Positions 6,819-60,223 of a stretch of DNA of 64,000 bases are shown piece after piece. The DNA comes from Asterionella formosa. Taxonomy: Eukaryota. The first letter of the stretch is position 1, and every line of letters begins with the position of its first letter. The DNA is taken from positions 1 to 64,000 of the forward strand of contig NKIB01012336.1 in assembly GCA_002256025.1 (NCBI GenBank), given 5' to 3'. The position numbers and the translations under genes were made by a program. The notes under the pieces were generated by a model, which was not told where the DNA came from, searched no databases, and saw only the letters and a program-made list of their open reading frames with translations.

Positions 6819-7099
6819 CAATTGATTTAAACGAATAACTTATGTGGCAATACATTTGGGATATTCAACAGCTATCGAAGGTGTACCATGGCGTGTAATT
6901 ATTCACAAAAGACCTTCAAAACACAAATGGATCAACGGCGATGTTACATGATGTGATGCAATTAATGCATATGCAAGGAAGACTATTTTGCCAACCCTAG
7001 GATGTAAATCATGTGAAAAGAGTCAGCAATGATTTGATAAGGAACTTTAGAAGTTTAATTTTTTGCTCAATGGCTAACAATGATAGGCGTAATATGAAG

Positions 7100-9257
7100 T
7101 TAAATGAGGAGAAAGAAAACAGAAGTCACGAAAGAAATGGATTGCGCCAGAGTCTTCATGTCATCACTAGGACTGTCAGAAGTGGAGTCTGTCATATCTT
7201 GAATTGGAACCAAAGGACTAGTATTATTGCAACCCCCACCAACTTTGATCTGAACGGACTTGTCATTCGATCCAGTATAGAAAAACCTGTTTTCGTACAG
7301 GGTGACATTGCCAGCATCAATGCTCCAAAACCCCGGGTATATTCCTACATATGGTATGCATGAGTGAAGTGAGTGCTGGCTGACGAGCAACATGGTAATG
7401 CCACGTATGGGTACACATTTTGTAAGAGTCTTACCGCTGCCAGAGATATCGTCGAGGAAGAATTCATACTCGCCAGTTGGAAGGGCCACTGGGAATTCGT
7501 ACGTTTTAAGGCGATCGAGCATACCTGTATTCCCTGCGCCAATATCGAAAATGAACTTTTTCTTCATAGTGCAAAGGTTGAAGTACCCGATGTCTTTTAT
7601 TTCTTCGGGGATTGTGTCAGTGTAAAGAGTAACAGTTATATTTGCAGTAGGACCAGGGACGATTTGCGGTGTACATTGACCAACTCGGACAGAAGCATCA
7701 CTAATAACTGCAACAATTACTGAATCGCTAAAGAAGGCATTTCCTGGAGTGATTGCGTGCAGCACCTCTCCATTTGATTCGAAGGTGGCACCTCCAGACT
7801 GCAGTCCTGAAAAAGGGACAACAGCCAAGTCAACTTGTTAGTCAGTTCTCCACTACAAGTAGCCACAGTTATTTGTTTGTCACTTTTGATGCTTTTGTGC
7901 TTACCGTCGTTTCCGTCATCAAAAAGACCCAGTTTGTATTGTCCGATGGTTGGTAGGGTGATGGACTTGCTGTATTGCGTATTCGCTTGGTCAAACCCCA
8001 AAAACCAATGCTCCCCGGTACACATATCCCTAAAGAACAAACGTGTTTCTCCAGGATTGGCATCGGTCGTGACTGTGATATTAACTGTTACTGTCGGACC
8101 CAACACATAGGATGTCCGCGGGTCAACCGATATTATGACCTGATCATCATCGTCATTGGGAGGTGGTGGCTCGGCATTCGGGTTGTCAGTGCAAGTTCCC
8201 TCCATGACACAGGATATCCAGTTTTGAAAGGCACTGACTCGAGAAGATACATCAGGCACATTGTCCCGGGCACATCCTTCTCCAAACGATGTAAGTCCAA
8301 CCAAGACATCCTCCTCTGGAGTTTTACCCAAGACGATAACGGGGCCACCTGTGTCAAGTAGTAGAAGTGCTCACATGTGAGAATTACTTTTGGTATGCAT
8401 CCAGCATCGACATATCGAAACATGTAAGTGCTTACCTGAGTCCCCCTGACATGATCCCTTTCCACCGCTCTCGAAACCTGCGCAAATTTGTAAATCCGGA
8501 ATGATGTCTAATCCAAACAGAGTGTCAAGGTAGGATTTGATGCATTGGTCCATATTCACTGCTGGGACATCAACTGTTAACAGCATATCGGACAAATCCC
8601 CTTCATCTTGAGTAAATCCTAATCCAATGGTAGTAAGTGTTTGATTGTCCAGTGGGATAGATGAATTCTCATTGAGAGTGATTGGAGGAATACCAACAAC
8701 TGAAGATTCCAAAATCAAAATAGCAATGTCGTTTGAAACTGTGTCCCGGTCGTCGTTCGTATAGTTGGGGTGGATGTGGATTTCCGTGAGTTGAATGTAC
8801 GATGGATCATAATTTTAGTCAGTAAAATTGACAGCCACAACGGGAGGAACAGCAAAACCTTCTACGACACAGTGGGCTTATGATGTATTAGAGTATAGTG
8901 AAATGCAACAAGCTTGTTAGAGATGGTGATTGATGATTGAATCAGGATTCATCTTTGAAATTACATACCTGCTGTGATTACAACATTGTCGCGAATGAGA
9001 GATCCACCACAAAAAAACGAATCAACAGTATTGTTTTCGAATATTGCAGTGAAATAAGGAAATCTTGTTTTGCTAGCCGTAGCGCCACCCACAATACGAA
9101 GAATTGAGTTTGAATTGATGTTTGTCCTCCTGGTAATGTCATCATTTGCCCCAATGACAACATCCAAGAAGCCGGAATTAGTGTCAACATTGACTGCAGT
9201 ACCGGTATGGAGAACAACCAGTATTACAACAGCCAGAAAATGTACATTGAACTTCAT
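7100..9257 (-). pseudogene. S1 serine protease copy 1 (5 exons), disabled duplicate of 22444-24703
   Basis: RIVGG, TA|AHC, NDIA and GDSG motifs. In-frame TAA at 8815-8817 (TTC in copy 2) and an early TAA at 7100-7102 (TTT in copy 2). Confidence 0.8.
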
Positions 9258-10251: not shown

Positions 10252-10483
10252 TGTTCAGATCTATACTATTACGCATATGATTGAAGAGGCTTTTGAGGAA
10301 TACAAAGAGTTTGAAGCGACGATCAAAGAAGGAGAGAATCAAAATAAAATTATAAAGTGTTATTAACAATGCAATATTTAGTTCCGAGGAAAAACAGGAA
10401 GAAGAATTCTGACAAGGTGACCTGTCAGAATTTCGATCGGTCTGACCAACATACATGTATATTTATTCATGAAGAGATTAACA
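10252..10483 (-). repeat. 3' LTR of copia-1
   Basis: TGTT...AACA termini; about 9 mismatches to 16337-16568; preceded on the minus strand by purine-rich TTGAGAGGAC. Confidence 0.93.
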
Positions 10484-13400
10484 TAGTCCTCTCAAGTGGT
10501 ATTCGTGGAATATCTCTTGCAGTTAATGCCATAATATGTGACAACATAGTTCAAGATGTTTATGTGGGGGTAACCATTTGGTTAGTAAATCTGCAAGATT
10601 GCTGGCTCCAGGTTCATGATGTATTCTCATAGCCTCTGCTGCGATGCATTCCCATACTTTGTGATAGGCAATCGAATTATGTTTTTTTTGTAGTGTTGAT
10701 TCTGGTCTAGTCACATTCATCACCACACTGTTATTGTCGCAGAATGTATTAATAGGTTCTTGAACGGGTATCCCCAGCATGCGAAGTTTATAACGCATTG
10801 CGTCATTCATCTCCGCAGCAATTTTGAGGGCGACAAACTCAGATCCGAAAGTGGAAGATTCAATCGTGTTTTGCCGTTTTGAATACCATCGAATTGCAGT
10901 GCCATTTAAGAATAAGATAATACCTGTATTAGAGCGACGTGTCACCAGGTTGGTTGCATGAGATGCATCGCAAAACAGGTTGATTTGAAGTCGTTGACTT
11001 TGTGGTTTTGGTGCATTAGCCGGGATGTCTTCTTGAACATCAGGGTAGAATTCTTTCCAGTTAGCCGATGCCCATGTTTTATCTGACCAATCTTGTTCAC
11101 AAGGGTCTATAACCGATTTGCATGAAATATGTTTTCGAAGATATGCGAAAATGCGTAATACAGCCACCATATGACCTTGGCAAGGGGCCGCCATGAAAGA
11201 GGCCATGGTAGATCCTGATTGTGCAATGTCAATTTGTCCCAGTTCAATGGCCCATCATAAAATTTCTATATAACTTTGGTATAGGTGGGTGTCTGTATTG
11301 CTCAAGAAATCCGATGTATCCAGCTCAGGATGATAGTCTGGTAGGGCTGGAGAATCCAACTTTGCTTTGAATAATGGTTTTAATGGGCAGTCCATATGAT
11401 TGTTCAATAACAGGAATAGCTTTGGCAAGATAGTCTTCAGCTGAGATATTCCATGTTTCTTGCCCATTGGCCAATTGATATTTACCTATCTTTGCTCCCA
11501 GATATCTTGTAGGTGGTCCAACATCTTTAAACGATATAGGAAGGGAGGATCTGCAAATGAGCATATGATTGTGCTGGGATCCTTGGAAATACATAGGATG
11601 TCATCAACATAAACAAGTATGTATTCATAATATTCGAAACCCTCTCTTGTGACAGCCTCTCGATACCACATATCAGGATCCGCGTAACTTGGGATGAAAC
11701 CGATGTCTCGCAGCGTGGCTGCAAAGTGCGAGCGCCAGGCGGCTCCAAGCTCTTTAAGCCATATAAGGCACAAACAATGATGGCAAGTTTGCCTTCATCT
11801 TCTCCAAATTCAGGTCCGGCTATTGCATAAACTTTCTCTTCTGTGCTCGCATTTAAATAGGCGTTGCCTATGTCTGCCATCATAATACTTAGTTGATTGA
11901 CTGCAGCGATGAGAAAGGCGATTCGGACACTGTCTCTGGAAACAACAGATGAGTAGGTTAGGGATACAGGGGGGTCGGTTTTGTGGCCTCTTGCAACCAA
12001 ACGAACCTTTCTAGTAAAATCCATCTTGATATCGAAAATCATTTTCATAGGGATGTGTTTGTAGCCAACTGGTGGCTGGCAGTTTCTCTCATTGAGATCA
12101 AATGCAATGCGGACATTTGTCATTTCCTTCATAATTGCTTCATGCCATAAATTGTTATTGTTTCTACTGTCAATTTCTAGTGCTTCTGCCACCGTGAGGG
12201 GCAAAGGGAGACCGAATTTAAATTCAGTTTGGATTGACCTCTTCTGTGATAGTTTAATTAATCGTTGTTGTTTATGGAGTAGATGTTTAGACCACCAGTC
12301 AAAAGCTGGTTCGGTGTCAATTTTGTTTGCAATGGCGTAATTTGCTATTTCCACAGAATTTGATTCCTTCAGTGCCTTTAATGGTAGCCAGGAAGTGGTG
12401 CCGTCTTTCCATTCCACTTCAAATTGCCATCCTGCTGTCGTCTTTTTCTTTACTCGTTTTCCTTGAACAGACCTAAATTGATCTGCTTTGTCTATGGCCC
12501 TGTTGTTCTTGCAATGGTTAATTATTGCAACAAAAAGACGGTGTTGTTTACCCTCAGTGTCAATTTGGGAGTACATGTGTTCTGCAAGAATATTATATGC
12601 TATGTCTTGTTGTTCTCCATCTTGAAATTAAACGGTGAAGATTCGGGAATCTAGTTTTGGGTTAGCATGTTTCCTGCCAATATAGAGTCCCTCCAAATTC
12701 CTTTTGCGTCCTAGGACTTTGGCAATCTCGTTGCGGTCCCCTTTAGGGAAGTAAACCTCTGCATTGACAAACTCATTTGGGATAGGTGTAATTTCTGCCA
12801 TTATATTAGCCTTCTCGTCAATGACTGAATCAATATCGTCATCAGCATTAGGCGGTTCCAACAGCTCCTTGTTTGGAGCATTGTGTATAAGGGTTTCGTC
12901 AAATTGAGAGTTAATCTTGGTAATTTGCTTGTCAAAAACATGTCTCATTGTTCTTTCTGTCTCATCAAGCCATTCTTCTCGCATGAGCGGACGGACTGTG
13001 GATTGGGCAATAATTTTGCCATTTTCTTTTAGAACATAGTAGCACATACCCTGTCCAATGTTTTCTGCCACTCCCAGCCATCGGCCAATGTCATTTTCGG
13101 TTCCCCCTCCCCTGACATCTTGATACTTGACCCAGCCATAGAAATCAAATGGTAAATACTCAGAGATGTCAGGGGTGATACCGGTGAGCAATTCAAGTGG
13201 GGTACAATCATGAGTTAAAGGGCGCGCCATCCGTTTGCAGATCTGAGAAGTGTATTTAAGACCGTAGTACCAGAAGCATTCTGGACATTTGGTATGGTGC
13301 ATGATGCGCCTGTAGTGTCTTTTTAATTCTTGTATTTCGCATTCAGCCCGGTTTTGCCAAGGGGAATAGGGCTCGGTGAGACATTGTTGGAAAAGATATT

Positions 13401-16336: not shown

Positions 16337-16568
16337 TGTTCAGATCTCAACTATTACGCTTATGATTGAAGAGGCTTTTGAGGAATACAAAGAGTTTGAA
16401 GCGACGATCAAAGAAGGAGAGAATCAAAATAAAATTATAAAGTGTTATTGACAATGCAATTATTAGTTCCAAGGAAAAACGGGAAGAAGAATTCTGACAA
16501 GGTGACCTGTCAGAATTTCGATCGGTCTGACGAACATACATGTATATTTATTCATGAAGAGATTAACA
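16337..16568 (-). repeat. 5' LTR of copia-1
   Basis: Same 232-bp length and termini as 10252-10483. Confidence 0.93.
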
Positions 16569-17757
16569 TATGTTGGGATACATTGTCCTATACATGCCTG
16601 ATAGCGATGACATGCAATGACATGCATCTGTTGTTAGGCCAAGCATCCTTCATAAGGGTTTTTATGATTTGTCCAAATGATTGCAAGAAATTTGCGCAGA
16701 GTTCTTGCAGTGTCACAAAAACGATTTGGAAGGACATTTTAGTGCAGAAACAACACCTATTATGAGGAATCAATTCAAACAATTAATGTCCAAACATCTA
16801 CCAACAAAAGAAGAATCCAAATTGTCAAAGGCAACCAATCATGGCAAATCAAAATGAGAAGATTGGGTATAAAGTTCGTTGTTGTGAATACAAGTGGATG
16901 TTGCAGTCAAGAAAGTGATTTGCATTCAGAACGAGGATGAATGATTCATAATTTTGTTATCTCTCATGTAATTCTTCTCTTAAAAGTGATGTCTGGCACC
17001 ATTTTAGCTTTCAACCAAGGGTCTCTCGAAAATCATCACAATCTTGTCAGTTCGACTTGAAACATTGCACTTTATAATGAACTTGTACAATTTCTGAAGG
17101 ATCTGTAAGGAAAGATTTGAACTTCACATTGACTTGCAAGCCAGAATTATTGGGAGGCATATTGACAGAGATTTCAAAAACTTCGGCCATATAGTGTTTA
17201 GTGATGGTTTCTGCTTTTGTGGTGATGAAAGCCCTTGTCAGACAAATGGATTGAATGAAAGCATCAACACCAGCCATAAGACAAGAGGCAATTGCAATAA
17301 CAGAAGCTCTTATTTTCTAATGTACTAGGAGTATACGTAGAGGAAGGCTGATGAGTGTTGCCATCGCGATGGATATAGTCTTTATCCTTTGTGGTGTTTA
17401 ATTCCAAGTAAAATTAATGGCAACAAATTCAAATGCTGAGTCTTATGCACATGTTTGTGGAGACAAAAAATGGCTAACTGTTTTGCCATTCTTGAGATAT
17501 ATTTGTGAAATGTCTCTGTAAAGATTCATTTTTTTCTGAAGATACAATTTACAAAGTATTTGCATCTCTGTTAAAGGGCAGGTCTTAACAGAGAAATGGC
17601 CATCCATGAATCCAAAGACAAACAAGTCTAGAGCATATTACTATGTACCTGACCAAGAAATAACATGAACCAGTATTTAATATGCATAGCTAATACTCAC
17701 AGCCACCATCCATCTTGAACAGACAACATGCTCATGGCGCTTCTAACGAGCGCGGAT

Positions 17758-22039: not shown

Positions 22040-22443
22040 GCACAGCATAATGCTCTACGCCGAAGAAAGTTTCACTATGTAGAGAAACTTCGTCGCTTAT
22101 AGATAGTTATCCATCGATTCTATATTCTCGCTAAGGGAAGGGGTGGTACTTTTTTTCAAAGAATAGTCACAAAGCTGGTGACCTACTTCAGAAGAATATA
22201 CCGGTACATCAATTGATTAAAACGAATAACTTATGTGGCAATACATTTGGGGTGTTCAACAGCTATCGAAGGTGTACCATGGAATGTAATTACTCACAAA
22301 AGACCTTCAAAACACAAAATGAATCAACGGCGATGTTACATGTGATGCCATTAATACATATGCAAGGAAGACTATTTTGCCAACCCTAGGATGTAAATCA
22401 TTTGAAATGAGTCAGCAACGATATGATCATCAACTATAGGAAT

Positions 22444-24703
22444 TTAGTTTTTTGCTCGATAGCTAACAAGTAAAGGCGTAATATGAAGAAAAATGAGGAG
22501 AAAGAAAACAGAAGCCACGAAAGAAATGGATTGCGCCAGATTCTTTGTATCAGGCCTTGAACTGCTAGAATTGGATTGTGCCAGATTATTTTTGTCACCA
22601 CTGGGACTGTCGGCACTGGAGACAATCATATTTTGAATTGGAACCATAGGACTGGTATCATTGCAACCCCCGCCAACTTTGATCTGAACGGACTTGTCGT
22701 TCAATCCAGTATAGAAAAACCTGTTTTCGTACAGGGTGACATTGCCAGCATCAATGCTCCAAAACCCCGGGTATATTCCTACATATGGTATGCATGAGTG
22801 AAGTGAGTGCTGGCTGACGAACAACATCGTAATGCCACGTATGGGTACACATTTTGTAAGAGTCTTACCGCTGCCAGAGATATCGTCGAGGAAGAATTCA
22901 TACTCGCCAGCTGGAAGGACCACTGGGAATTCATATGTTCTAAGGCGATCAAGCATACCTGTATTCCCTGCGCCAATATCGAAAATGAACTTTTTCTCCA
23001 TAGTGCAAAGGTTGAAGTACCCGATGTCTTTTATTTCTTCGGGGATTGTGTCAGTGTAAAGAGTAACAGTTACATTTGCAGTAGGACCAGGGACGATTTG
23101 TGGTGTACATTGACCAACTCGGACAGAAGCATCACTAATAACTGCAACAATTACTGAATCGCTAAAGAAGGCATTTCCTGGAGTGATTGTGTGCAGCACC
23201 TCTCCATTTGATTGGAAGGTGGCACCTCCAGACTCCAGTCCTGAAAAAGGGACAACAGCCAAGTCAACTTGTTAGTCAGTTCTCCACTACAAGTAGCCAC
23301 AGTTATTTGTTTGTTACTTTTGATGCTTTTGTGCTTACCGTCTGTTCCGTCATCAAAAAGACCCAGTTTGTATTGTCCGATGGTTGGTAGGGTGATGGAC
23401 TTGCTGTATTGCGTATTCGCTTGGTCAAACCCCAAAAACCAATGCTCCCCGGTACACATATCCCTGAAGAACAAACGTGTTTCTCCAGGATTGGCATCGG
23501 TCGTGACTGTGATATTAACTGTTACTGTCGGACCCAACACATAGGATGTCCGCGGGTCAACCGATATTATGACCTGATCGTCATCGTCATTGGGAGGTGG
23601 TGGCTCCGCATTCGGGTTGTCAGTGCAAGTTCCCTCCATGACACAGGATATCCAGTTTTGAAAGGCACTGACTCGAGAAGATACATCAGGCACATTGTCC
23701 CGGGCACATCCTTCTCCAAACGATGTAAGTCCAACCAAGACATCCTCCTCTGGAGTTTTACCCAAGACGATAACGGGGCCACCTGTGTCAAGTAGTAGAA
23801 GTGCTCACATGTGAGAATTACTTTTGGTATGCATCCAGCATCGACATGTCGAAACATGCAAGTGCTTACCTGAGTCCCCCTGACATGCTCCCTTTCCACC
23901 GCCATCGAAACCCGCACAAATATGCAAATCCGGAATGATGTCTAATCCAAACAGAGTGTCAAGGTAGGATTTGATGCATTGGTCCATATTCACTGTTGGG
24001 ACATCAACTGTTGACAGCTTATCGGACAAATCCCCATCATCTTGAGTAAGTCCCAATCCAATGGTAGTAAGTGTTTGATTGTCCAGTGGGATAGATGAAT
24101 TCTTATTGAGAGTGATTGGAGGAATACCAACAACTGAAGATTCCAGAATCAAAAGAGCAATGTCGTTCGAAATTGTGTCCCAATCCCCATTCGTATAGTT
24201 GGGGTGGACGTGGATTCCCGTTACATTGCGGACTTGAATGTGCGATGATAGATCATAATTGAATTCAGTAAAATTGACAGCCACAACGGGAGGAACAGCA
24301 AAACCTTCTACGACACAGTGGGCTTATGATGTATTAGAGTATATTCAAATGCAACAAGCTTGTTAGAGATGGTGATTGATGATTGAAAAAGGATTCATCT
24401 TTGAAATTACGTACCTGCTGTGATTACAACATTGTCGCGAATGAGTGATCCACCACAAAAGAACGAACCACCATTATCGAAATCGAATAGGGCAGTGAAG
24501 TAAGGGAATCTTGTTTTGCTAGCCGTAGCGCCACCCACAATACGAAGAATTGAGTTTGAATTGATGTTTGTCCTCCTGGTAATGTCATCATTTGCCCCAA
24601 TGACAACATCCAAGAAGCCGGAATTAGTGTCAACATTGACTGCAGTACTGGTATGAAGAACAACCAGTATTACAACAGCCAGAAAATGTACATTGATCTT
24701 CAT
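22444..24703 (-). CDS. Secreted/membrane-anchored S1 serine protease copy 2 (5 exons), with two repeated C-terminal modules and a hydrophobic tail
   Basis: Signal peptide, R-IVGG activation site, His (TA|AHC), Asp (NDIA) and Ser (GDSG); Ser-rich linker then a hydrophobic C-terminus. No stops seen in the inferred exons. Confidence 0.88.
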
Positions 24704-25227
24704 TTTGATGAAAAGGGGAAGAGAGCACAATAAAATGGAGGATTCGGACGATAAATTGTTTTAGTGTTATTAAAATGATTTATATTTATACACCCATGTT
24801 ACACCGTCTTGAATCATATATTGAGTCATGAATTATTGGAACCAGGTACTACCGGTACCGCTTATAGAGAGGCTGATGTACAACAAACAGTTCATTGTCG
24901 TGAAACTTGTTTACTGTTTTTTAGTCATGGCACGAGTGATGCATCTATGAGTAAAAATTGACGTGTGCCGGTATGCATTTACCGCAGGTTTATTAAGTTT
25001 TCATTCATGCGTAATGGGCAAGAGTTGGCAAATGCCTACTGGTAGTAAAGAAGCAAAAAGAGCGAAATACTGCAGTGGCTTCGATTGCATGTGATAGACA
25101 TCCAATGCGAAGGTTACTTGCTTGGGACTAAGTACAGTAACTGAAAAAACCAGCAAAGCATGTTGCACCTTTGCAAACGCGGTAACCCTACACTACCATT
25201 AATCGTGTGTACCTCGAGATCAAGAGG

Positions 25228-26208
25228 CTATATTCTTACAATCATACATGTTATATCGTCGACCTTGCCTTCTATTGGCAAATCGCTAATCCATGCTCGC
25301 TTTGCTGCTTCCGCCAAGAGTCGACCCGAATCTTGAAAGTCATGATTTACAGACCTCATTACAACATCTTTCACTTGTTCATTTGACAAAACATCCCACA
25401 CCCCATCTGTCGCAAGGACTAGAGTACTCCCTTCATTCAGTACCGTCTGCTCCATTAAAATAGGTGTTGGCAAAATGCCGGCTCGCAACATGACCGAATT
25501 CCCCAATGAGCGTGTCATGGCAATTCCTTGTGGTCCATAAAAGATATTTCCAAAGGCGTCCACCCGCCCTTCTCCCGTCTTCACTCTGGTCGATTCTAAT
25601 GGCATGAGTTTGGTGATTGTTTCCAGTGTCAGGGGTATAATGGCATTATTACTGTCAATTAGTATGGCCCTCGAGTCACCAACATGACCCAATTCCAGGC
25701 GTGTCCCATTCATGATTACACCGACAATGCATGTCGTACCAGATCGACCTGCAGGCACGTTGGGATTCTGCATGGCCGACCATTGAGCCACGTGAAATGC
25801 CCGGCACAAGGGGTGTGAATAATGAACTCCGTCGTTGTCTTTGCCGATGTCTCTCAACCTCGCTTGATAGTCTTGTAAGTCTGCGTTCGGGACATGATCG
25901 ACAGACAAGAAGCACTCGTTCAAGATGGAGGGAAACTCGTGGCTCAAAAAGCGAGTCAGCAAATGCCCCTTGAGTCCATGGCCATCCATGACTCCAAAGG
26001 CGACTGTCTTGCCATCGTCTAATTCGTGATGGAAGAATGAGTCTTGGTTGACCTTGGAGGGTCGATCGGGATCACTTCCTGGTAACGAATAGGAGGAAAT
26101 CGACAACTGAAGAGCGAATTGATGGCGATGAAGTGGCGCGAACGACGGAAACGCAAAGGAGGCTGAAGAAAGGAGCGAGAGGGGAATTGAAGATTTTAGG
26201 AATCGCAT
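25228..26208 (-). CDS. PP2C/PPM protein phosphatase with an N-terminal targeting presequence
   Basis: NQD, GVMDGHG, SGTT, HVGDSRA, MTRSLG, ATDGVWD and DDIT motifs. Confidence 0.9.
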   Translation of the reverse strand: MRFLKSSIPLSLLSSASFAFPSFAPLHRHQFALQLSISSYSLPGSDPDRPSKVNQDSFFHHELDDGKTVAFGVMDGHGLKGHLLTRFLSHEFPSILNECFLSVDHVPNADLQDYQARLRDIGKDNDGVHYSHPLCRAFHVAQWSAMQNPNVPAGRSGTTCIVGVIMNGTRLELGHVGDSRAILIDSNNAIIPLTLETITKLMPLESTRVKTGEGRVDAFGNIFYGPQGIAMTRSLGNSVMLRAGILPTPILMEQTVLNEGSTLVLATDGVWDVLSNEQVKDVVMRSVNHDFQDSGRLLAEAAKRAWISDLPIEGKVDDITCMIVRI

Positions 26209-27013
26209 TGGTACCCGTCGGATTCTTCTTATATCTCTTTTTCGTAAGTGCGTAGTTTAAAATGGAACACGTAAAATGGTGTTCATCAAGGGTGATTTAT
26301 GTAATGCCATTGAGATGATTTACATCGCGGTACGAATAGAAGCAATGGAATTTGTGTTTGATTGCATCCCGTCGTATAAAATGGCTTTGCGTATGGTGTG
26401 TACACAGGTATAGTAATGAAAAAAAATACAGGTATCATGCACATCATGCATCACAAATCAAATCCATATTACCGGTACACACACTGGAGGAAAGTACGGT
26501 ATAAACTATATGCATCAAAGGATTACCGGTATGTGTTATGTACCGTTATATCCCAGCAATTGCAATGGACAACATAACCGGGTGTGCAACACAATCCATC
26601 AGGTCAAAACGTATTCTGCATCTACGTACTAAGAAGGTATTGCTTTTTGAGCAATGCAGTCATCGATGGGATATCGGCTAATATATACCGCCGGGAATAG
26701 TCTACCGTTATGTGTCTAACCCATTTACGGGAATTTCAGTTCATTTGCATGAGGCCTTCTCCTAGTATGCGTAGTATCTTGTAAGAGTTGTCTACCCTGA
26801 TGGTAGGTCTACTGGTCTTTATATAGACATAGGCAGCATGCAGAAGCTATAGGTTTTTACGAGGTTACTACCTACCGAAACTTGGAGACAAACAACACGA
26901 AAGATTGGAAATTTTGTGATTGTTTGGCAACAAGATTTCGAAGGCGAAGAACAAGCTAGGTAAAAGGCAAGACTTTTAGAAACGCCTGCAAATGATATTG
27001 ATGCCTTGTCGCT

Positions 27014-28124
27014 TTAGACCTAATAGTAGTAACAAAAGTGGAATGGCAGACAAGAATGCACGACGTTAGTCATACAAAACGTAGCAATTCAACCGCTTTG
27101 GACGGTTCATATGGTGCGAGCAACCACATTGCGACACAATCAATTTGCTGTGCTTTACTACTTTTACATACCGCTGGGATGGGGACTTTAGTTTCCTTGG
27201 GTGCTGCCTTGGGTGCCTTGGTTGCAGTGGGATCCTTGGTAGCCTTGGGGGGCTGTTGTTGGAGAAGCAAGAACCAAAAAATAGTGTAAGACATTTTCTC
27301 GTGTAGTCGTAGCTAGCTGCCAACCAGTTTGCTGTTTCCAGCGCAGCACTCCACGGTATGTGGGTGGCTGATTTGACGATGATGGGAACGTGTCGATGTA
27401 GTTTAGCTACTACGTACCTTCGTATCGACGCCTTTGAGGATTCTAGTGCCCTTTTTATGCTTCTTCTTTCAAAAAGGCAGAAAAACGCATGGAGGAATAT
27501 TAATGCAAAAGGTTAGCCATAATGCATGTCATCAATCACGCACCAAACATGAATAGAACGAAGCAGTTCCATGAGCTTGCTTGTGCACACTCTTCCATGT
27601 TGTGGCTACACGCATCCATCAAGAAAGGTGGTGGTCTAGTACCAGTACATACCTTGGGGACTTTTGGGACCTTGGTGGGTGCCAATGGTGGCGTGGAGGC
27701 AGTGGGTGCCGCGATGGATACGATGGGTGCCGCCGTTGGTGACTTTGGTTTTTTGTGTGTCTGTTGTAAAAGAAACAAGACGGTGCAAAATTGTGAGACA
27801 CTGGTTATTGCGCTTCGTCTTGCTTGTTAGTGGGGTCCGCTTAGCTAGTAGTATTGCAACCCGTACGTACCTTTCGGTCAAGTTTGAGGACTCTATCCTG
27901 TTAGTATGGCGAAGGCGACGCATGATAGCATGCCAGTGTTAGAAGGAGTCACAACCAAATTAGTTTCGATGCTCCTCGAGCTTCTTATTCCACCGTTGAT
28001 TTCAATAATGATTGGTCAATCCGCATCAACGTGGTATTCTACATACCTCAGAGGTCTCAATGGGGTCGGCCATGGTCGAGTGGACGATTGCAGCGACCAA
28101 GAGGAGAGAACGAATAGCCTTCAT
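27014..28124 (-). CDS. Silaffin-like secreted Lys/Pro/Thr-rich precursor, 115 aa; exons 28124-28047, 27897-27871, 27760-27653, 27465-27418, 27252-27172, 27019-27014
   Basis: Five phase-0 GTA(T/C)GT...AG introns give a signal peptide, RVL and RIL sites, and KXXK repeats. Confidence 0.72.
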
Positions 28125-30862
28125 GTCGATGGTTGTATGAAAAAAAATGAGAAACACGTTTATAAAATGTACTGTTCTTAGTTTATGTACCTTACCTTGC
28201 TTCATTTGCTTTCTGAGTGATGACAATAAGTCAACAATTAGCTGGCTCGCTCGTCACATTGTACTTGATTCCTTATAAAGGTACTGAGCATGACCCTGCG
28301 ATGTGTGAATAACTGCGGTTGTTTCCACAGAAGAGTACCGGGTGGTCCATTGAGATCAGCAAAGCAATAAAACAAAATGACCAAGCAAGATCGCTCAGAC
28401 AATGAAGAATGAGATGGCTGTCAATATATATACTGGTAAATACATTTACATTTTCTAAACGTATGAGCGAATTGGGCCTGAAGTTCACCTGCCTTTCTTT
28501 ATTGCCGCCGCATTCATATGAATATTTGAATAGAGGCCATATTTATGTGAAAACATGCTTAGGACGGGTATGCACGACGTTGAGTTGACGTTGAAAGGGC
28601 ATGGTCATAGGTCGGGTTATAGGTTTGTATCTATCCGTACGTACATAAATCACCTCGCAGGTACTAGTTGGAGAGCATTCTCCTAAGAGGTACGCTCAGG
28701 AGTACCGCAGGTGTACTTAGAGTAAACAATGACCGGCAATAAATATCGGATTTCTTTGTTTTGCTTCGAGGGTGCCAGGGTATACTTGATCCCAAGTCAG
28801 TGTTCACAACCGTTTTTGTAAGCATACCGGTAGTTCCGTCTACAATATGTAAACAGTCACATGCTTTCAATTGCCCTGTCGCCCGGCTGACTCGTACTTC
28901 GGTCTTGTTGTCGTATGGCTGGCTCGCATTGTTCTAGTATTCATGTCCTAGTCATTTCCGATTGCCATACATATTTAAAATGCCCTCTATATCGATCTTG
29001 CCCCAACCATACATTGTAAAGTAGTGCCTCTGCTGCTAGCTCTCAGCCGAGTACCTGGAACCTTCGCATTGTTTGCACTCCGTAACACTTGAATTGCTTG
29101 CTTGCTGATTTGACAATCTTTGTGCTTCAACTTGTTTCTTATTGCATCTGCACCAGATACATCTACCGGTGTATACAAGCCAAGTAATGCACAACTCTAC
29201 TTTTCGAAATTTCATGTACAATGCATGTGGTCTGAATAATTTGTTCCCCTCCTGCTTTTTCTGATAAGATAACTTTTAATGGGTTTCATGTGAACAAGTT
29301 TCATTGAACTCTAGACTGAATTCTTAGTTAATGTTTCAAATATTCCTTTCAATGTTCAACTTACATTACTTTCTTCATAGCCTAGTATGAGGAAATTTTA
29401 AGTCTGGAATGCTGCCAAGAAGATTTGCTGAGAGATGAAGAAGTCGAAAATCGCAAATTGCCACGATTTCATAATTTCAGAGATTCATCACTCATATGTC
29501 GGTATGTAGAAACCATTGTAGACTTTGATCACAACAGGGTAACCCAAGTAAAGTGAACACTACAACTTAAATTGTCAACATCTCCAGCATTGTCACTTTG
29601 TCTTCATCCACTTGTCTTGATTGCTTGGTGTCTCATCTTGCAGCATCTCATGGGTTGATTGTAGTGTTCAGGTAGCCGCTTGGAGCTGAGGGCATTGCGC
29701 ACATTCTCCTTGATAAGAAAATGAGATGGAGAAAAACCTTCTTTCAGTAAGTAACAAGCAGCAGACCACTAAATATCATAGTAATTCATTTTGTCCACCA
29801 GAATCTCACTCTCTTGTCCCTTTTCATTCCTCTTCTTTCTTGTGGAAGCAGCGATAATGATGACATGAGGAGGAATGGATTAATTTCACAGATAACTTTC
29901 GCCATGGAAGTCAAAATATCCTTCAAATCGGACATTTGGTAACCAGATAAGGAACTGATTGGCGAAGGTTTCAAGCAGTAACATGACCATCAACAGATCA
30001 GCAGAGACAAGCATAGCAACTAAATGAGAATTTGAATGGACAAATGCAGCAACATAGGATTGGCAAAATGCGATCCTACTAGAACTTGCTGACAATGATT
30101 AGATGTTGCTGACAATGACTAGAATTTGCTGACTACGACTAGATTACTGAATGGTGAATTCCATTAGTAAACTGTCTTCCAGTTGCTAAATACCATTACC
30201 ATTAGTAGTAGGTGAAGACAATTTCAGAGCACGACTTGGATTTAATGTTTGATGATTTAACATTATAGAAAGTTACTGAAGAGAGTCAGGAATGGAAAGA
30301 CAGTCTATCTCGTCTGGTAGGCATGAAGCTTGGGACGAGTCACTGGGTGTGAGTTGAAACTGAAAAAGTGCGCATAAAACGTGCGATACCCAGCCTTCAT
30401 GGTGCGTGCTTATTTACATAAAAAAAAACTCTAGAAATAATGAGAAGCTATATTGTAGTCCCTTTCCATATGTATTCTACACAATTACTAAATGGATTCT
30501 CATTTTTTTCTACTTTCAATGAGCGAAGTCTATGTTCCTTCAGGTGACCTATTTTTCAAAAATGCATAAATTCCCATAAATTTCATTTCATGCAAACGGA
30601 AAGGGAAACAGGTATATTCCTTATTTCAACATTTCAAACGTGACTTCGCCCTTCCTGGTGATATCGCTTTTTCGTTTTCTGGACCTTATTTCATTGTTTA
30701 GTGTACATCTGTTTCTAGGTTCTCCATCCGATTGTTTGTCGTAACCTGTTCATCACTGAGAATTCGACACCACTCTGTACGAACATCCTCTTGATCCTGT
30801 TGGTTCCCCATCAACCCTAGCTACCTGCCGAGATTTAAGCAATCGGTCCTTATTCTTGGAGA

Positions 30863-34262: not shown

Positions 34263-34617
34263 ATCTTTATGTTCATTGCAACCACTGATGGATTCCACTT
34301 TGTGATGGCAGCCGTCAGGCATGCATCGACTTTCCGGGATCGGTGAATTCCTACGACATGTACTTAATCGTGCTACCGGTAAATGGACGTTGGACTGTGC
34401 CGTAGACTTTATATGGGAGATATATCTTCCATTATAAAAAAAATCTTGGCAATCATTATCATCCATGACATAATTATAATTTCGCTAGAGGTAATAAACC
34501 AGTAAAAGAGGTTCGAAAAAAGGCAATTGTTAACAGCAACATCAATAGATCATCACAACACGGTACCCAGTATTCCTATAGAAGCTCCGATTCGTCTTGC
34601 TTTCCTATTTATCAATC

Positions 34618-36330
34618 ATGTCAACTCCCTCCTCGTTTGAACGTCTATATCGATCTGAAACTGCGTCAACATCTGCCAAGCGTCATAATGCTACACACAA
34701 TCCCATTCCATCCGCCAGTGCCAGCGGCGGCAGTCGCAGCGACACTTCGGCTCCTCCTCGTCCTGTACGAGGAGAGCCTTCCCATTTACCTCGCGTCGCT
34801 ACGCTTCCGAGTCCTTCCCGGCTGGTGGTGAGTCGTTCCAGGATTTCATCCTCGCTACAAAATCCCCCATCGAAACCGAAAGCAAAGGTCCCAACTGTGA
34901 GCATGACAATGACATCTGCTCCTACTGCGACAAGAAGTTCTGCAGTAATGACAAAAGCTGTAGTAACTAAAAAATCAAATTCCACGAAACCTGAAGTAAC
35001 AACCAAAGTTACTATCGTACCTGCAACGAGAACTGGAAATAAATCAAAGGCTGTCACTAAAAACACAGCACCCACTGCAAAAAAGGTACTATCTCAACCA
35101 AAGCAGAGGACGTCTAAAGCCCCTTCATCGGCAACAATGATTCTAAATGAAAAGGAAGAAATTCCAATATCATCAGACAATAACACTTCAAATTTCCCAG
35201 TAGTTACATTGATAAAGAATGTACCATGCAAGGATGAAGCTGTAATTGAAGAGGCAGTGCTAGACCACATACCATCGGCGGTCCTACACATGGATGTTCC
35301 ACCAAAAGACGAAGCTATGGCTCTATTTGATCGAATTGACTACAATGGAAATGGGTTTCTGTCTCTTGCTGAGCTAGACAAGGCGGTTCTGGAGCTATAT
35401 CCGGAATGGAACAATAAGCCTGCCATGATGAGAGCCTACAAGTCATGTGACACGAATGGAGATGGGTTCGTGAAACAACGAGAATTCGAGATGTTCCTTC
35501 GGTTCCTAGTTTATTACAACAATCTCTGGCATGATTTTTCCCAAGGCGACAATGATAAGGATCGACGATTGACAAAAGATGAGTTTTTGTCCCTTGCAGC
35601 CAAGATGGAGATAGAATCCCCCGAAGCTGCTTTTGAAGAGATGGACCAGAATAGTGGCGGAGTAGTCCTTTTCGATGAGTTTTGTACATGGATGGCCAAG
35701 AACAAAAGTGATTGGGGACTGGAAAGGAGGGACTACACTGAAACTACGACTCCTTCTCCAACAAGGGAGACTGCTACTTCTGAGTCCACACCAGGCCAAA
35801 CTCAGATTGATCATATATCTGCAAGTGAGGAAGCAGTGCCATCTTACATACCATCGGCTGTCCTGCATATGGATGTTCCACCAAAAGACGAAGCTATGGC
35901 TCTATTTGATCGAATTGACTACAATGGAAATGGGTTTCTGTCTCTTGCTGAGCTAGACAAGGCGGTTCTGGAGCTATATCCGGAATGGAACAATAAGCCT
36001 GCCATGATGAGGGCCTACAAATCATGTGACACGAATGGAGATGGGTTCGTGAAACAACGAGAATTCGAGATGTTCCTTCGGTACCTAGTTTACTACAACA
36101 ATCTTTGGCATGATTTTTCCCAAGGCGACAATGATAAGGATCGACGATTGACAAAAGATGAGTTTTTGTCCCTTGCAGCCAAGATGGAGATAGAATCCCC
36201 CGAAGCTGCTTTTGAAGAGATGGACCAGAATAGTGGCGGAGTAGTCCTTTTCGATGAGTTTTGTACATGGATGGCAAAGAACAAAGGAGAATGGGGAGTG
36301 GGGACTGTAGATGCTTCACACTCTAGTTAG
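34618..36330 (+). CDS. EF-hand protein with two near-identical calflagin/FCaBP-like domains and a basic S/T/K-rich N-terminus
   Basis: LFDRIDYNGNGFLSLAELDK, DTNGDGFV, DNDKDRRL and DQNSGGVVLFDEF are each present twice. Confidence 0.85.
   Translation: MSTPSSFERLYRSETASTSAKRHNATHNPIPSASASGGSRSDTSAPPRPVRGEPSHLPRVATLPSPSRLVVSRSRISSSLQNPPSKPKAKVPTVSMTMTSAPTATRSSAVMTKAVVTKKSNSTKPEVTTKVTIVPATRTGNKSKAVTKNTAPTAKKVLSQPKQRTSKAPSSATMILNEKEEIPISSDNNTSNFPVVTLIKNVPCKDEAVIEEAVLDHIPSAVLHMDVPPKDEAMALFDRIDYNGNGFLSLAELDKAVLELYPEWNNKPAMMRAYKSCDTNGDGFVKQREFEMFLRFLVYYNNLWHDFSQGDNDKDRRLTKDEFLSLAAKMEIESPEAAFEEMDQNSGGVVLFDEFCTWMAKNKSDWGLERRDYTETTTPSPTRETATSESTPGQTQIDHISASEEAVPSYIPSAVLHMDVPPKDEAMALFDRIDYNGNGFLSLAELDKAVLELYPEWNNKPAMMRAYKSCDTNGDGFVKQREFEMFLRYLVYYNNLWHDFSQGDNDKDRRLTKDEFLSLAAKMEIESPEAAFEEMDQNSGGVVLFDEFCTWMAKNKGEWGVGTVDASHSS
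35268..36287 (+). repeat. Intragenic ~440-bp direct repeat (period 579 bp)
   Basis: 35268-35708 and 35847-36287 are nearly identical. Confidence 0.95.
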
Positions 36331-44278: not shown

Positions 44279-47200
44279 TGTTGAAATGGTCCGTACTCCT
44301 TCCCGCGGGCTGGGTCTCTCTTCACGTAGACTCTTACGTGATCGTAGTACTACCTAGTACCACTTACTTTCTCTCTTGTCTCTGCTTCTAGCCTTCCTGC
44401 TTGACCTTGCTGTCAATTAACACACTGTTTCCTCAGTTGAAAATCTAAACTCAAATTAAATTATAAGCTAAACTAAATGTTTCCTTTCCATGCATCTTTG
44501 CTTCCTGCAAAGTCGTTCTAAGACTCTCTTCGAGTTTCCACTTAACATTTCCATAGAAATGTTCAATCTTTGATCTCGTTAGACAGCTGATTGACATGGC
44601 AATGCAATATTCGACTCGTTCGATTATCCACAATCCTTGTGACCCAGGCTAATATTCTTGACATCCTCCCCATTGCCATGCTCAAGAGGCTGTAACATCG
44701 TTCCACTCTGAACTGGTTCTGACAATCTCATATGAATCTGTTCCTTCACGTTCTTAGTCATAGTAATGTCCGCAAAATTATCTTCCGACCTTATAAAAGT
44801 GACTTCCAATTCTTCATCTTCAATCATGTCCTTTACATGATGATACTTAATATCAATGTGTTTTGTCCTGGTTCCAATTTGCTGATTCTTCGCGATAAAA
44901 ATAGCTCCTGTATTGTCTTCTCATAGGATACTTGGTAACATGACCTTAGCACCAGTAACCTCATTCAGTAGCATTGCTATGAACTTGATCTCTTGTCCAG
45001 ACTGGGACATCGCCACATACTCGGCTTCCGTGCTAGACAGCGTAACCGTTTGTTGTCCCTTCGACTGCCAACTGATAAGTGCCCTGCCAATAGTAACAAG
45101 ATAGCCAGTCATGCTCTTCCTGTTAACCTTATTAGCAGCCCAGTCACTTTCCACGTAGGCAATGACTCTTAACTCTTTTGGCTTACGTAACTTGAGAACT
45201 CTATCCTCCATATTGGATAGGTAACCAATGACTCTTGCCACTGCATGCCATTGTTCGTTTCGACACATCCTTTCCTACAGGAATTCTCATAGCTAGTGCC
45301 CTCTCGTTTTCTTCGTCTCTGTTTTTCTTTTTCTTTTCTCTTTTTTTCTTTCTGTTCTTGCTGAGGACTCGAACTGTCAACCTCTGGTTTTCACGTACTT
45401 CCTCGTTCCACTTGTAGTAATGAGCCCGCTACCATGTTAAAATATATGGCGCCTACTCTAGCGTGCTCCAGTACTGCCCTGGAATGACCGGTCAAGATCT
45501 TTCTCACACCGCTTGTCTGCAGATTCTTCTGTTATATAAATCCTGTCTTTTCCCGTTTAGACATTCCTCAGACTAGTACCTAGTCTTCGGACTCCTGTCG
45601 ACATCAACAGCCTTTGGTAATCCTGGATCAGAAGCCAGACTTGCATTGTACACAAAATTCACCTGTGTATTCTTCGTAACTTCCTTAATGTCATCCACCT
45701 CGATAACACCAGGCATCTCAGTATCTCCTGAAATTTTCACAATTTTCGTACTTGTAGGATTGAACGATGAGTCCAATCTTTGCATTTCACGTGCCAACTT
45801 CGCTTGCTTGTTAGACTGAGCACTCTCGGCACGTTTAGCCTTCACAATTGGGTTGTTGGTACCTGTAACCTCGTATTTTGTAGTACCATCTATCTTAGTT
45901 GATTGTTCAGTTTTCCTCCCCAATTCTTGCTTTTCATCATCTTCATCTTCATTATCGGACACTTCTCGAGGTCGTTCGAACTCGTCATAAAAATCGTCAT
46001 GCAATTCTTCATTAACTTTTCGTACTGATATCTCCGTATCCTGTTGGTTGGTGACTGGTTTGCACATTTTCTCTAGTCCATCGTCCATGGCCATCACCCA
46101 ATACTGATTTCCCACAGCGGATTTTGCGTAGGGTCCACTAATATCAATAAACAGTCTTTCTCCTGGTGTCGTAGCCTTCTCTTGCGTCATCTTGGGTACT
46201 GTGCATGCTTTCTTTGCCTTGGCTGCTGCACATCCGGCGCACACCTTTAAATTTCCAACAAGTTTCCACCCAAATAATTCGATGTCTCACGAAGACATTT
46301 TTCCCCCACATGCTGTCCAAGCATTTCATGCGCTTCATTTATTTCCACAATCACATCATTATTTTCGTTCGCGTTGCTTTTCTCGATCGTTTCACCTATC
46401 GCTTTCGTAGTTTTCTTCTTTACGTCGACTTTTGTCCATTCATTCTCGTCTTCTTTATCGTAGTCGATACATTGTTGTGTTGGCTTCTCGCTTTCTTGTT
46501 CAACCTCCAACACCGTTTCCTTTAGAATAGGCGTTCCTTGCACATGGTATATTGCACCAATTGTCCTCTTTTCATCACGTTTGCAGATCAAAAATCCGTT
46601 GTTGTTTCTGATCGTCATCTTATCATCATCAAACATAACTCTATTTCCCTTGTCAATAATTCTCGAAATACTGATGATGTTCTGCTTGAACTCCGGTGCA
46701 TAGAGCACATTGGTGAGTTTCAACACTTTTCCTTTGTCTGTCGTCGTAAGGGTCACTGTGCCTGATACAGTTGCAACAATTTCTGTGCTGTTTCCCACAA
46801 GAACAGTTTCACGCACTGCGCGCTTGTCCTCCATGATGCGCTCATCATTGCATATATGTACCATTGCACCACTATCTAGTAGCCAACGGTCCTTATGCAC
46901 ACACGTATGATTTACCTCTTCGTTGTACCTTGCCTCAATACACGTTACCACGAACATTCCTTGCGTAGTGGTGTTGGCATCTTCTCCCTTCTGTTAGATT
47001 GGTGCATTTTGTTGATTATTGCACTCACTGGCATAGTGCCCCATCTTCTGGCAATTATAACACTTCACATTCTTTCTCTTATTTCGTTGCTCGGGAGTTA
47101 ATTCTCTCTTTTCTGTAGTATTGCCCTTGCTTCGGCAATCAACTGCCTTGTGGCCATACTTGCCACACTTCCTGCAGTCTCCCTTAAACTTGCTTTTTGA

Positions 47201-48305
47201 AAAGAAGGCCTGCTCGCCATTCTTACTGGTCTTGGTTTCGTCACGCACATGCAAATCGTAATAGTCGCGTACATTCTTCATGACCTCTTGGATCGTGAGC
47301 TTGGAGCTCGCGAGACCAAATTTTCCAACCACCAAACTCTTGTAGACTTCCGGTAGGTTGTTGATAACGTGGGCCACATAGGCACCATCCGAAATTGCGG
47401 AGCTCGTACGGCTCAATCGTTCTCGAATTCTATCCAACTCCACAAACCAAATGTCGGGGTTCTCATTCTCGTTAATCGTGCATTTTGTCCACTGACCTGA
47501 CAAGGCAGTCACATTTGCCATATTACTTGACTCGTATGTAGACACTAATTTGTCCCACGCTTCCTTCGCATTTCCATTGGGGAACTCTTCACTTCTGGCA
47601 CCATTTACGTATCCAAAGAATGGTCCACTCTGACATGCCATAATCAAACTTGCATAGGCAACCGTATTATTTCGTTTCGCACGCTTCTCATCATTGTCTC
47701 TTGGAACAATCTTCACTCCAGCTGAATCTCTCTCACCTGATGATACTTCATCTCCATTTAGGATTCCTTCAAAACCTTTGTAGCAGGCATAGGCCACAAA
47801 CTTCGCTTTCCAAACGTGCCACTTGGCATCGGTACCATCAAATGTTAGCAACCGCACTCCTGACGATTCGTCGTCAATTCCCATCTTGAGTACCCTTTCA
47901 AACCTATTCGCTTTAAAGCGTGTTGAAATGGTCCGTACTCCTTCCCGCGGGCTGGGTCTCTCTTCACGTAGACTCTTACGTGATCGTAGTACTACCTAGT
48001 ACCACTTACTTTCTCTCTTGTCTCTGCTTCTAGCCTTCCTGCTTGACCTTGCTGCCAATTAAGACACTGTTTCCTCGGTTGATAATCTAAACTCAAATTA
48101 AATTATAAGCTAAACTAAATGTTTCCTTTCCATGCATCTTTGCTTCCTGCAAAGTCGTTCTAAGACTCTCTTCGAGTTTCCACTTAACATTTCCATAGAA
48201 ATGTTCAATCTTTGATCTCGTTAGACAGCTGATTGACGTGGCAATGCAATATTCGACTCGTTCGATTATCCACAATCCTTGTGACCCAGGCTAATATTCT
48301 TGACA
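44279..48305 (-). mobile_element. Ty1/copia element 2, internally deleted (gag, PR, partial IN, RT end, RNaseH)
   Basis: 385-bp LTRs at 44279-44663 and 47921-48305 (~5 mismatches); PPT GGGGAGGA. Gag with two CX2CX4HX4C knuckles; PR WLLDSGA; ERLFIDISGP; RNaseH SSTEAEY. No RT YVDD core. Confidence 0.93.
45252..45609. mobile_element. Solo-LTR-like insert nested in copia-2 where the RT core should be
   Basis: TGTT...AACA ends, non-coding, related to 38391-38678, and separates pre-RT from late-RT coding sequence. Confidence 0.65.
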
Positions 48306-59974: not shown

Positions 59975-60223
59975 GTGCGTTGAATTGAATTGTTGCTATA
60001 ACTGATAGTCTATGCTCTTCTTGTTTCTGTTGTTTGTTTGTATTTCGTGTTGCTGTTCCTTCAGCGGCCTTGCCTCAATGGGAGGAGGACGCTAAATACC
60101 ATATGTACTATGCGTGACTCCTCTCTGTACTACCGAATTGTAGGATAAATAAATACAATTGGAAAGGGCACGCAGCAGCAGGCAGAAGGATGCATATGGA
60201 GATTCCCTATACATATAGTTGAT

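Follow-up and report, generated by a model that had tools for sequence, protein, structure and literature searches.

A spliced minus-strand gene for a predicted secreted Lys/Pro/Thr-rich RXL protein, a candidate cell-wall or biosilica protein

On the minus strand of a stretch of contig NKIB01012336.1, six short exons had been read from sequence alone as the gene of a silaffin-like biosilica precursor, with two RXL (Arg-X-Leu) processing sites and lysine pairs of KXXK spacing. Is this exon string a gene, and does its product belong to the silica of a diatom wall? The window analyzed was the whole stretch of 64,000 nucleotides (nt). The string lies on the minus strand at the coordinates that had been predicted, and its first exon begins with the ATG at 28124 (Table 1). 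We found a transcribed and spliced gene, and its product is a credible candidate for a cell-wall or biosilica protein.

Transcription and splicing of the locus

Six RNA runs from three studies, all of them lake or freshwater metatranscriptomes, contained 17–49 % of the sampled words of the locus. Four of these runs (X1 to X4, from two studies) were aligned; the assembled contigs reveal presence and joints, not levels. The joint of intron 1 (27897/28047) was found in contigs of X3 and X4, and that of intron 4 (27252/27418) in X4. The joint of intron 3 (27462/27653) was found in one X4 contig (X4-16), where three letters are ambiguous and only this placement gives GT..AG ends. The same contig contains the entire exon 4 between the joints of introns 3 and 4. 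All joints read CT..AC on the plus strand, so the RNA came from the minus strand. A plus-strand gene was ruled out, since all four RNA joints, including one in the leader (see below), are GT..AG on the minus strand.

The acceptor of intron 3 used in the RNA is the second AG of a tandem AAG/AAG, 3 nt downstream of the predicted one. Joining the exons at the predicted coordinates reproduced the proposed product of 115 amino acids (aa) letter for letter. With the observed acceptor the mRNA encodes 114 aa, one lysine fewer.

For intron 2, no joint was found among the aligned contigs of the four runs, and only its donor was supported. The alignments of two contigs (X3-12 and X4-17) end exactly at the last base of exon 2 (27871) with two letters left over, so these contigs do not enter intron 2. 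For intron 5, no joint was found either; the contigs of X1, X3 and X4 leave 27099–27155 uncovered, and stretches without cover, most of the 3' end among them, prove nothing. The cover over exon 6 was uninformative for the gene, because contigs of a strongly expressed neighbor overlie 27014–27019 (up to 27056 in X4). The last exon, of a single codon, is a plausible prediction from its signals and is probably correct. Retention of intron 5 would extend the frame by 32 residues, to 146 aa in total. The exon 5 contigs of X3 and X4 both stop at 27174, two bases before the predicted exon end; a heterozygous site or another junction is a possible cause.

The splice signals were examined across the window. 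All exons are multiples of three in length, and all introns are in phase 0 with GT..AG ends. The heptamer GTAYGTA occurs 29 times on the two strands of the window, compared with 9.58 expected and a maximum of 17 in 100 shuffles. Five minus-strand copies fall within 0.9 kb, exactly one at each predicted donor (0.08 expected). Those following exons 2 and 4, the two RXL exons, read GTACGTA, and the other three read GTATGTA. Branch motifs resembling CTAAC lie 42–67 nt ahead of the acceptors of introns 1, 2, 3 and 5. The GC content is 0.55 in the exons, compared with 0.41–0.47 in the introns.

Comparison with a related strain pointed to constraint on the exons. The X2 contigs, 95–99 % identical to the locus and unspliced, cover 27334–28225 (892 bases, 258 of them exonic). 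The 15 substitutions and one insertion listed are all intronic or in the leader. None of these 16 differences falls in an exon (P = 0.004, assuming an even spread of differences). This run, unspliced throughout and of even depth, may represent DNA or pre-mRNA of the related strain. In addition, an open reading frame (ORF) from an ENA metagenome, P0019, agrees at 73 of 74 positions with the open frame that spans exon 5 and the bases flanking it. Exon 5 itself is identical, and the single change falls in the part derived from intron 4. P0019 is clearly from the same species.

The prediction of a transcribed, spliced gene was thus borne out by the GT..AG joints of introns 1, 3 and 4 in lake metatranscriptome contigs. 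Among the five predicted junctions, those of introns 1 and 4 were found as predicted, whereas the acceptor of intron 3 had to be moved and intron 2 was supported at its donor. We have little doubt that the gene is real and that the model is correct for exons 1 to 5 except for the 3-nt shift. We read it as a genuine nuclear gene with five or six minus-strand exons, carried by a freshwater alga that has a red-type complex plastid and is most likely a diatom.

The leader contains an optional intron, removed in one X1 contig that keeps introns 1 and 2 and extends past 28400. Spliced at an extra GT..AG joint that removes the start codon, this contig is RNA, of a non-productive form. An upstream ATG, at 28205, shares the frame of the main ORF as long as the leader intron is retained. 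An upstream start site may be marked by a TATA-like run at about 28424–28432, which would put several upstream ORFs in the leader.

Table 1. Features of the gene. Exons (1–6) and introns (1–5) are named in 5' to 3' order on the minus strand; coordinates are those of the 64-kb window.
Feature	Coordinates	Strand	Length	Remarks
Optional leader intron	28195-28119	minus	77 nt	GT..AG; joint 28117/28195 (cut +1) in one X1 contig
5' leader (minimum extent)	28125-28168	minus		X3-12 and X4-17 unbroken over 28046-28168, spliced at intron 1
Exon 1	28124-28047	minus	78 nt	start codon, signal-peptide-like segment (residues 1-19), start of acidic pro-piece; 0 differences in strain X2
Intron 1	28046-27898	minus	149 nt	GTATGTA..CAG; joined in X3 and X4; holds 4 X2 differences
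Exon 2	27897-27871	minus	27 nt	micro-exon with first RXL (RVL)
Intron 2	27870-27761	minus	110 nt	GTACGTA..CAG; predicted from sequence signals; retained in contigs X1-3 and X3-11
Exon 3	27760-27653	minus	108 nt	lysine cluster, Pro/Thr/Ala-rich core, KVPKVPK; 3' end joined to exon 4 in X4; 0 X2 differences
Intron 3	27652-27463	minus	190 nt	length as observed; 187 nt in earlier model (acceptor 3 nt upstream)
Exon 4	27462-27418 (earlier model from 27465)	minus	45 nt	length as observed; 48 nt in earlier model; Lys/His cluster and second RXL (RIL); 0 X2 differences
Intron 4	27417-27253	minus	165 nt	GTACGTA..CAG; joint in X4; retained in X1-2, X3-10 and X4-15
Exon 5	27252-27172	minus	81 nt	C-terminal basic Pro/Thr/Ala/Lys-rich peptide with KXXK spacing; 5' end joined to exon 4
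Intron 5	27171-27020	minus	152 nt	GTATGTA..TAG; CTAAC 47 nt before acceptor; predicted from sequence signals
Exon 6, coding part	27019-27014	minus	6 nt	one codon and TAA; predicted

The predicted product and its likeness to diatom wall proteins

The 114-aa product is composed of 17.5 % Lys, 14.9 % Pro, 14.0 % Ala, 11.4 % Thr and 5.3 % Ser, with three His and no Cys, Phe, Asn, Gln, Trp or Tyr. Residues 1–19 resemble a signal peptide by eye: Lys and Arg stand close to the N-terminus, nine residues form a hydrophobic core, and T-M-A precedes the putative cut (small residues at −3 and −1). RVL occupies residues 28–30, 8 residues past this cut, and RIL residues 78–80, after a lysine cluster. The pro-piece, an acidic octapeptide plus RVL, is 11 residues long and has an isoelectric point (pI) of 4.05.

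The first predicted peptide has 50 residues, of which 11 are Lys, a net charge of +12 and a pI of 11.4. It ends in RIL and carries lysine clusters at both ends around a Pro/Thr/Ala/Ile-rich core. The second has 34 residues (8 Lys), a net charge of +5 and a pI of 10.0. The mature part as a whole (95 residues, about 10 kDa) contains 20 % Lys and 4.2 % Ser, and most of the few serines of the product fall there.

The motifs of the mature part were compared with those in 100,000 shuffles of it. RXL occurs twice, compared with a shuffle mean of 0.13 (P 0.004), and two of the three arginines lie within RXL. KXXK occurs 10 times, compared with a mean of 3.5 (P 0.0002). The RXL sites and lysine pairs singled out in the sequence-only reading are therefore more frequent than the composition provides.

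A layout of signal peptide, pro-piece, RXL and KXXK is described for diatom biosilica-associated precursors in the cited parts of PMC5525289, PMC5647440 and PMC4557024. The N-terminal RXL marks the pro-peptide cut in most diatom biosilica proteins (PMC5647440). Repeat units of the silaffin, frustulin, cingulin and silacidin precursors also end in RXL, and those of Sil1p each end in RRIL or RRNL, which is trimmed off (PMC4557024). The same account gives KXXK as the proposed recognition motif for lysine modification. In the gene studied here, RVL lies near the signal-peptide-like segment and RIL at the end of a unit, as in diatom RXL-type pre-pro-proteins. Judged from its residues, the putative pre-pro layout, with an acidic piece up to RVL and RIL after a lysine cluster, matches that of diatom biosilica precursors well, as had been proposed.

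The product is best read as a putative secreted pre-pro-protein, in which RXL cleavage would give two disordered polycationic Pro/Thr/Lys-rich peptides of the diatom cell-wall and biosilica class. Two other destinations were dismissed. Under the ASAFAP rule of plastid targeting, the +1 residue is aromatic or Leu; here Asp follows the putative signal cut, so plastid targeting was discarded. A histone H1-like nuclear protein was discarded because of the signal-peptide-like start.

The two short peptides behind a signal-peptide-like start and an acidic pro-piece raised another explanation, in which RXL cleavage would release secreted cationic peptides with some other job (antimicrobial, allelopathic, or metal- or DNA-binding). 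Many cationic peptide precursors are built of a signal peptide, an acidic pro-piece and a short cationic peptide, and charges of +12 and +5 would suit this. On the other hand, the peptides have no amphipathic or Cys-stabilized features, and their disordered Pro/Thr-rich composition is unlike most such peptides. We know of no secreted cationic-peptide system of that sort in diatoms, a statement made without a literature search for one. This explanation was considered highly improbable.

For a wall or biosilica precursor, we infer the steps that would follow transcription and splicing. Residues 1–19 would direct the chain into the endoplasmic reticulum (ER) and then be removed. The diatom RXL endoprotease would cut off the 11-residue acidic pro-piece after RVL, and the same protease would cut after RIL to release the two disordered polycationic peptides of 50 and 34 residues. 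Lysines at i and i+3 in the Pro-rich stretches might be substrates for methylation or aminopropylation, as in silaffins and cingulins. The peptides would then reach either the wall or the silica deposition vesicle, where they would bind to silica or to acidic components of the matrix and aid the precipitation of silica.

The nearest known likeness is to the silaffin precursors (Cylindrotheca fusiformis Sil1p and Thalassiosira pseudonana Sil1-4). The features in common with the parts of these described are the signal-peptide-like start, an acidic pro-piece up to RXL, Lys-rich peptides ending in RXL and the KXXK spacing; Pro-rich parts and PT repeats are also reported for TpSIL1 (PMC5501833). 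Unlike in silaffins, serine here is 5 % with hardly any phosphorylation sites, X in KXXK is not Ser or Gly, and there are two units, without a long repeat array. The likeness is one of layout, not of alignment.

The silaffin-like or KXXK proteins of T. pseudonana share with the product a signal-peptide-like start, at least one RXL, KXXK motifs 1–6 residues apart, Lys above 10 % and windows of 12–14 residues holding at least five lysines. They differ from it in serine content and in the Ser or Gly within KXXK, and the lysine clustering here stays within what the composition gives.

Signal peptides and RXL sites are also common to cingulins, silacidins, frustulins and pleuralins, and cingulins have KXXK regions as well, in the cited parts of PMC4557024 and PMC9650480. 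Cingulins alternate Trp- and/or Tyr-rich regions with KXXK regions (PMC4557024); the product, with no Trp or Tyr, was not taken for one. The basic charge spoke against a silacidin, and the absence of Cys against a frustulin or a pleuralin. Silacidins are acidic, frustulins have acidic Cys-rich domains, and pleuralins have PSCD domains.

A more distant parallel is Siliplant1 (Slp1) of sorghum, a basic secreted Pro/Lys-rich protein described with RXL at its repeat ends (bioRxiv 10.1101/518332). Slp1 differs in being a plant protein of 524 aa that contains seven repeats as well as His/Asp-rich and Pro/Thr/Tyr-rich domains, and 11 % of its residues are His, compared with 3 His and no Tyr among the 114 aa studied here. 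The likeness implies no homology. By analogy, Slp1 shows that a serine-poor Pro/Lys peptide can do silica chemistry.

Points for and against a role in silica

Silaffin-type proteins are defined by composition, not by homology, and the published definitions were applied to the product. The screen of Scheffel 2011 demanded at least 18 % Ser and at least 10 % Lys per 100 residues plus an ER signal peptide, and gave 89 candidates in T. pseudonana (quoted in PMC3478156). That of Brembu 2017 demanded repeated KXXK, with X being Ser or Gly, 1–6 residues apart (PMC5501833). A pentalysine cluster is five non-consecutive lysines within 12–14 residues (PMC5501833, PMC9650480). The lysine content of the product (17.5 %; mature part 20 %) exceeds the Scheffel threshold. 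Pentalysine-type windows are found at residues 28–44 and 61–84, some of the lysines being adjacent and the density as the composition gives.

A number of findings weighed against a silica protein. Serine, at 5.3 %, is far below the 18 % of the Scheffel screen. The X positions of KXXK are Thr, His, Lys, Pro, Val, Ala or Glu, never Ser or Gly, which places the product outside the Brembu screen as well. In these published operational senses, the label 'silaffin-like' did not hold. The maximum of lysines per 14 residues was six, compared with a shuffle mean of 5.7 (P 0.54). Frustulins, which coat rather than form silica, also carry RXL. The signal peptide and the cleavage sites were assigned by eye from the sequence, and intron 5 and exon 6 are predictions. 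No search gave a relative other than P0019, so there is no tie to a localized protein. On the RNA side, contig depth was 2–14 over the gene, compared with 500–1500 over the neighbor. Unspliced contigs over introns 1, 2 and 4 (100 % identity) were at least as deep as the spliced ones; apart from the X1 contig with the leader joint, they may be pre-mRNA or carried-over DNA. Removal of the leader intron deletes the start codon at 28124 and joins the upstream ATG at 28205 out of frame. Finally, silaffin self-assembly and silica targeting are described as driven by phosphoserine (PMC4557024), and by analogy they would be missing in a protein with so few serines.

In one rival explanation, the product is secreted as a structural or surface protein and takes no part in forming silica. 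It might belong to an organic casing or to mucilage or adhesive material, or be a Pro/Thr-rich wall protein of extensin- or mucin-like type. In that case RXL would be only the general signal for pro-protein processing in the diatom secretory path, and the lysines would bind acidic polysaccharides or the finished wall electrostatically. A Pro/Thr/Ala/Lys-rich product with little serine and no Cys, Trp, Tyr, Phe, Asn or Gln fits such a protein, and so does its place outside both silaffin-like composition screens. Frustulins carry RXL too, as described in the cited parts of PMC4557024 and PMC5647440, and the sequence-only reading had itself named mucilage as an alternative. Against this, the cited part of PMC5647440 has RXL so far only in biosilica-associated proteins, namely silaffins, silacidins, cingulins and frustulins. 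The KXXK spacing is strongly enriched, and the mature product, at about 10 kDa and with peptides of 34–50 residues, is very small. Typical adhesive or mucin-like proteins are large. We regarded a surface protein of this kind as possible, on the doubtful side.

The silica reading stays alive despite the low serine for two reasons. Pro-Thr repeats occur in TpSIL1 and in many Si-responsive silaffin-like proteins (PMC5501833), and a Pro/Lys-rich serine-poor peptide of Siliplant1 is reported to precipitate silica in vitro via its lysine amines (bioRxiv 10.1101/518332). That the product acts in or on silica was held tentatively, as a serious possibility that falls somewhat short of being probable.

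Relatives were sought with single exons and their flanks, as queries of 36–74 residues and low complexity. A search of exon 3 with phmmer against 1,835,955,588 representatives gave no match at E ≤ 0.001. Exon 3 with 4 intron codons, searched against 5.8 billion clusters of longer proteins, gave 7 word-sharing candidates, none of them at E ≤ 10. Exon 3 with 12 intron codons gave 595 pattern matches in the metagenome contigs of JGI, and tblastn confirmed none. The exact 27-mer of exon 2 was not found in metagenome contigs. For the 74-aa open frame that includes exon 5 and flanking sequence, P0019 was the one match. Within the window, tblastn of the spliced product gave only self matches below E 0.05, and a composition scan found only the present locus and an unrelated stretch at 61373–61450. 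The lack of relatives is weak evidence, because the queries were short and of low complexity.

The weak transcription and the search results together bear on a second rival, an orphan transcript that arose recently and has little if any function. It would be a weak, inefficiently spliced unit upstream of a strong neighbor, its low-complexity frame not made into a stable protein. The low depth, the many unspliced contigs and the isoform without the start codon agree with it, as do upstream ORFs ahead of the start if transcription begins near 28400. The searchable exons also had no relatives in the 1.84 billion representatives or the 5.8 billion clusters, but such searches were of low power. On the other side, none of the 16 strain differences is exonic (P 0.004), phase 0 is kept by every internal exon, neither RXL nor KXXK is random, and a 13-nt stretch is conserved around both RXL sites (see below). 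A functionless transcript was therefore considered quite unlikely.

Both RXL sites of the candidate precursor lie on small exons (exon 2, 27 nt; exon 4, 45 nt), as had been claimed. These two exons have in common a 13-nt stretch, TAGA[G/A]TCCTCAAA, with 12 of the 13 positions identical, which occurs nowhere else in the window; its score was reached by 2 of 2000 shuffles. The ends of exons 3 and 5 share a similarity of 52 nt, which exceeded every one of 300 mononucleotide shuffles but is low in complexity. A search for internal duplication of the whole unit found nothing beyond this similarity, and the intron pairs gave z ≤ 2.6. Because exons 2 and 4 share the 13-nt stretch and the ends of exons 3 and 5 are weakly alike, the arrangement suggests a duplicated module of two exons, an RXL micro-exon and the basic exon that follows it. 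The further claim, that this arrangement serves modular alternative splicing, found no support: there was no exon-skipped joint among the four joints.

The most far-reaching form of the silica reading is a serine-poor silaffin class of freshwater diatoms. Its polyamine-modified lysines would stand at every third residue on polyproline-II-like Pro-rich stretches. A phase-0 module of RXL micro-exon and cationic exon would be duplicable. Exon duplication, the tandem AAG/AAG acceptor and possibly exon skipping might then set how many silica-forming peptides are released and what charge they carry. We considered this form unlikely as a whole.

The locus bears on how such proteins are found. Diatom silica-forming proteins are not conserved in sequence. 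The composition screens used to find them require serine and would therefore miss a serine-poor Lys/Pro/Thr-rich RXL precursor. ORF-based gene callers would also miss the gene, because its longest exon is 108 nt. If the peptides are in silica, the rule set for finding biomineralization proteins would be widened, and two short natural Pro/Lys peptides from a freshwater species would be at hand for biomimetic silica work. If they are not, this is one more of many low-complexity secreted diatom proteins. Diatom genomes carry dozens of such candidates, and the present one is a serine-poor addition to a known kind.

Neighboring genes and other features of the window

The window is gene-dense eukaryotic DNA. 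Pfam matches include a succinyl-CoA ligase beta, an Arf, an SRP receptor beta, an amino-acid transporter, ankyrin and EF-hand proteins, a sulfotransferase, a lipase, TENA, two trypsin-like proteases, a PP2C directly downstream of the gene, and two long terminal repeat (LTR) retroelements. In the Atlas, the cluster closest to the amino-acid transporter (score 0.97) consists mostly of Bacillariophyta, with a phylum known for 39 of its 64 members. The PP2C gave Haptophyta or viruses in the Atlas, which is uninformative. The N-terminus of the PP2C has a signal peptide followed by SSAS/FAFP, which resembles the ASAFAP motif and looks like a bipartite plastid-targeting signal. This motif is a mark of algae whose secondary plastids are of the red type (PMC4329603), and it suits stramenopiles, cryptophytes and dinoflagellates equally. 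Together with the lake and freshwater origin of the RNA runs that contain the locus, the transporter and the PP2C point indirectly to a freshwater diatom as the best guess for the source.

The PP2C gene lies on the minus strand, with its ATG at 26208 and its stop at 25228. In three runs, the minus-strand contigs of depth 500–1500 have their upper ends at 26757, 26900 or 27056. From there they reach about 1.2–1.5 kb towards lower coordinates and therefore cover the PP2C gene. This strongly expressed unit (25228–27056) abuts or overlaps the 3' end of the RXL gene. It contains a TATA-like element near 26816–26823 and a GTACGTA near 26629. Rfam gave no match at E ≤ 0.1 on 24500–30500, so the deep contigs are not a known RNA family.

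Two multi-exon genes of trypsin-like serine proteases lie on the minus strand at 6951–9257 and 22340–24703, 15.4 kb apart, both with signal-peptide-like starts. They are 85–93 % identical over the repeat blocks found. An LTR retroelement lies between them (LTRs 10252–10485 and 16337–16570, 96 % identical; RVT_2 at 11527–12627). Proteases of this trypsin-like, secreted type have been put forward as candidates for RXL processing (PMC5501833); the nearness of these two genes to the RXL precursor proves nothing about its processing.

A short LTR element of copia type occupies 44279–48220, with 300-nt LTRs (44279–44578 and 47921–48220) that are 99 % identical. Its gag, zinc knuckle and Pol beta-barrel are on the minus strand, and the region has a strong GC and AT skew. 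A 447-residue ORF on the minus strand (58655–59995) has no Pfam family. A transcript-derived protein in public run assemblies is 100 % identical to it, and its only 7 further relatives, of 32–53 % identity, are all unnamed or 'hypothetical'. An EF-hand protein of 582 residues (34582–36330, plus strand) contains an internal direct repeat of 300 nt (at 35240 and 35819), the copies being 94 % identical.

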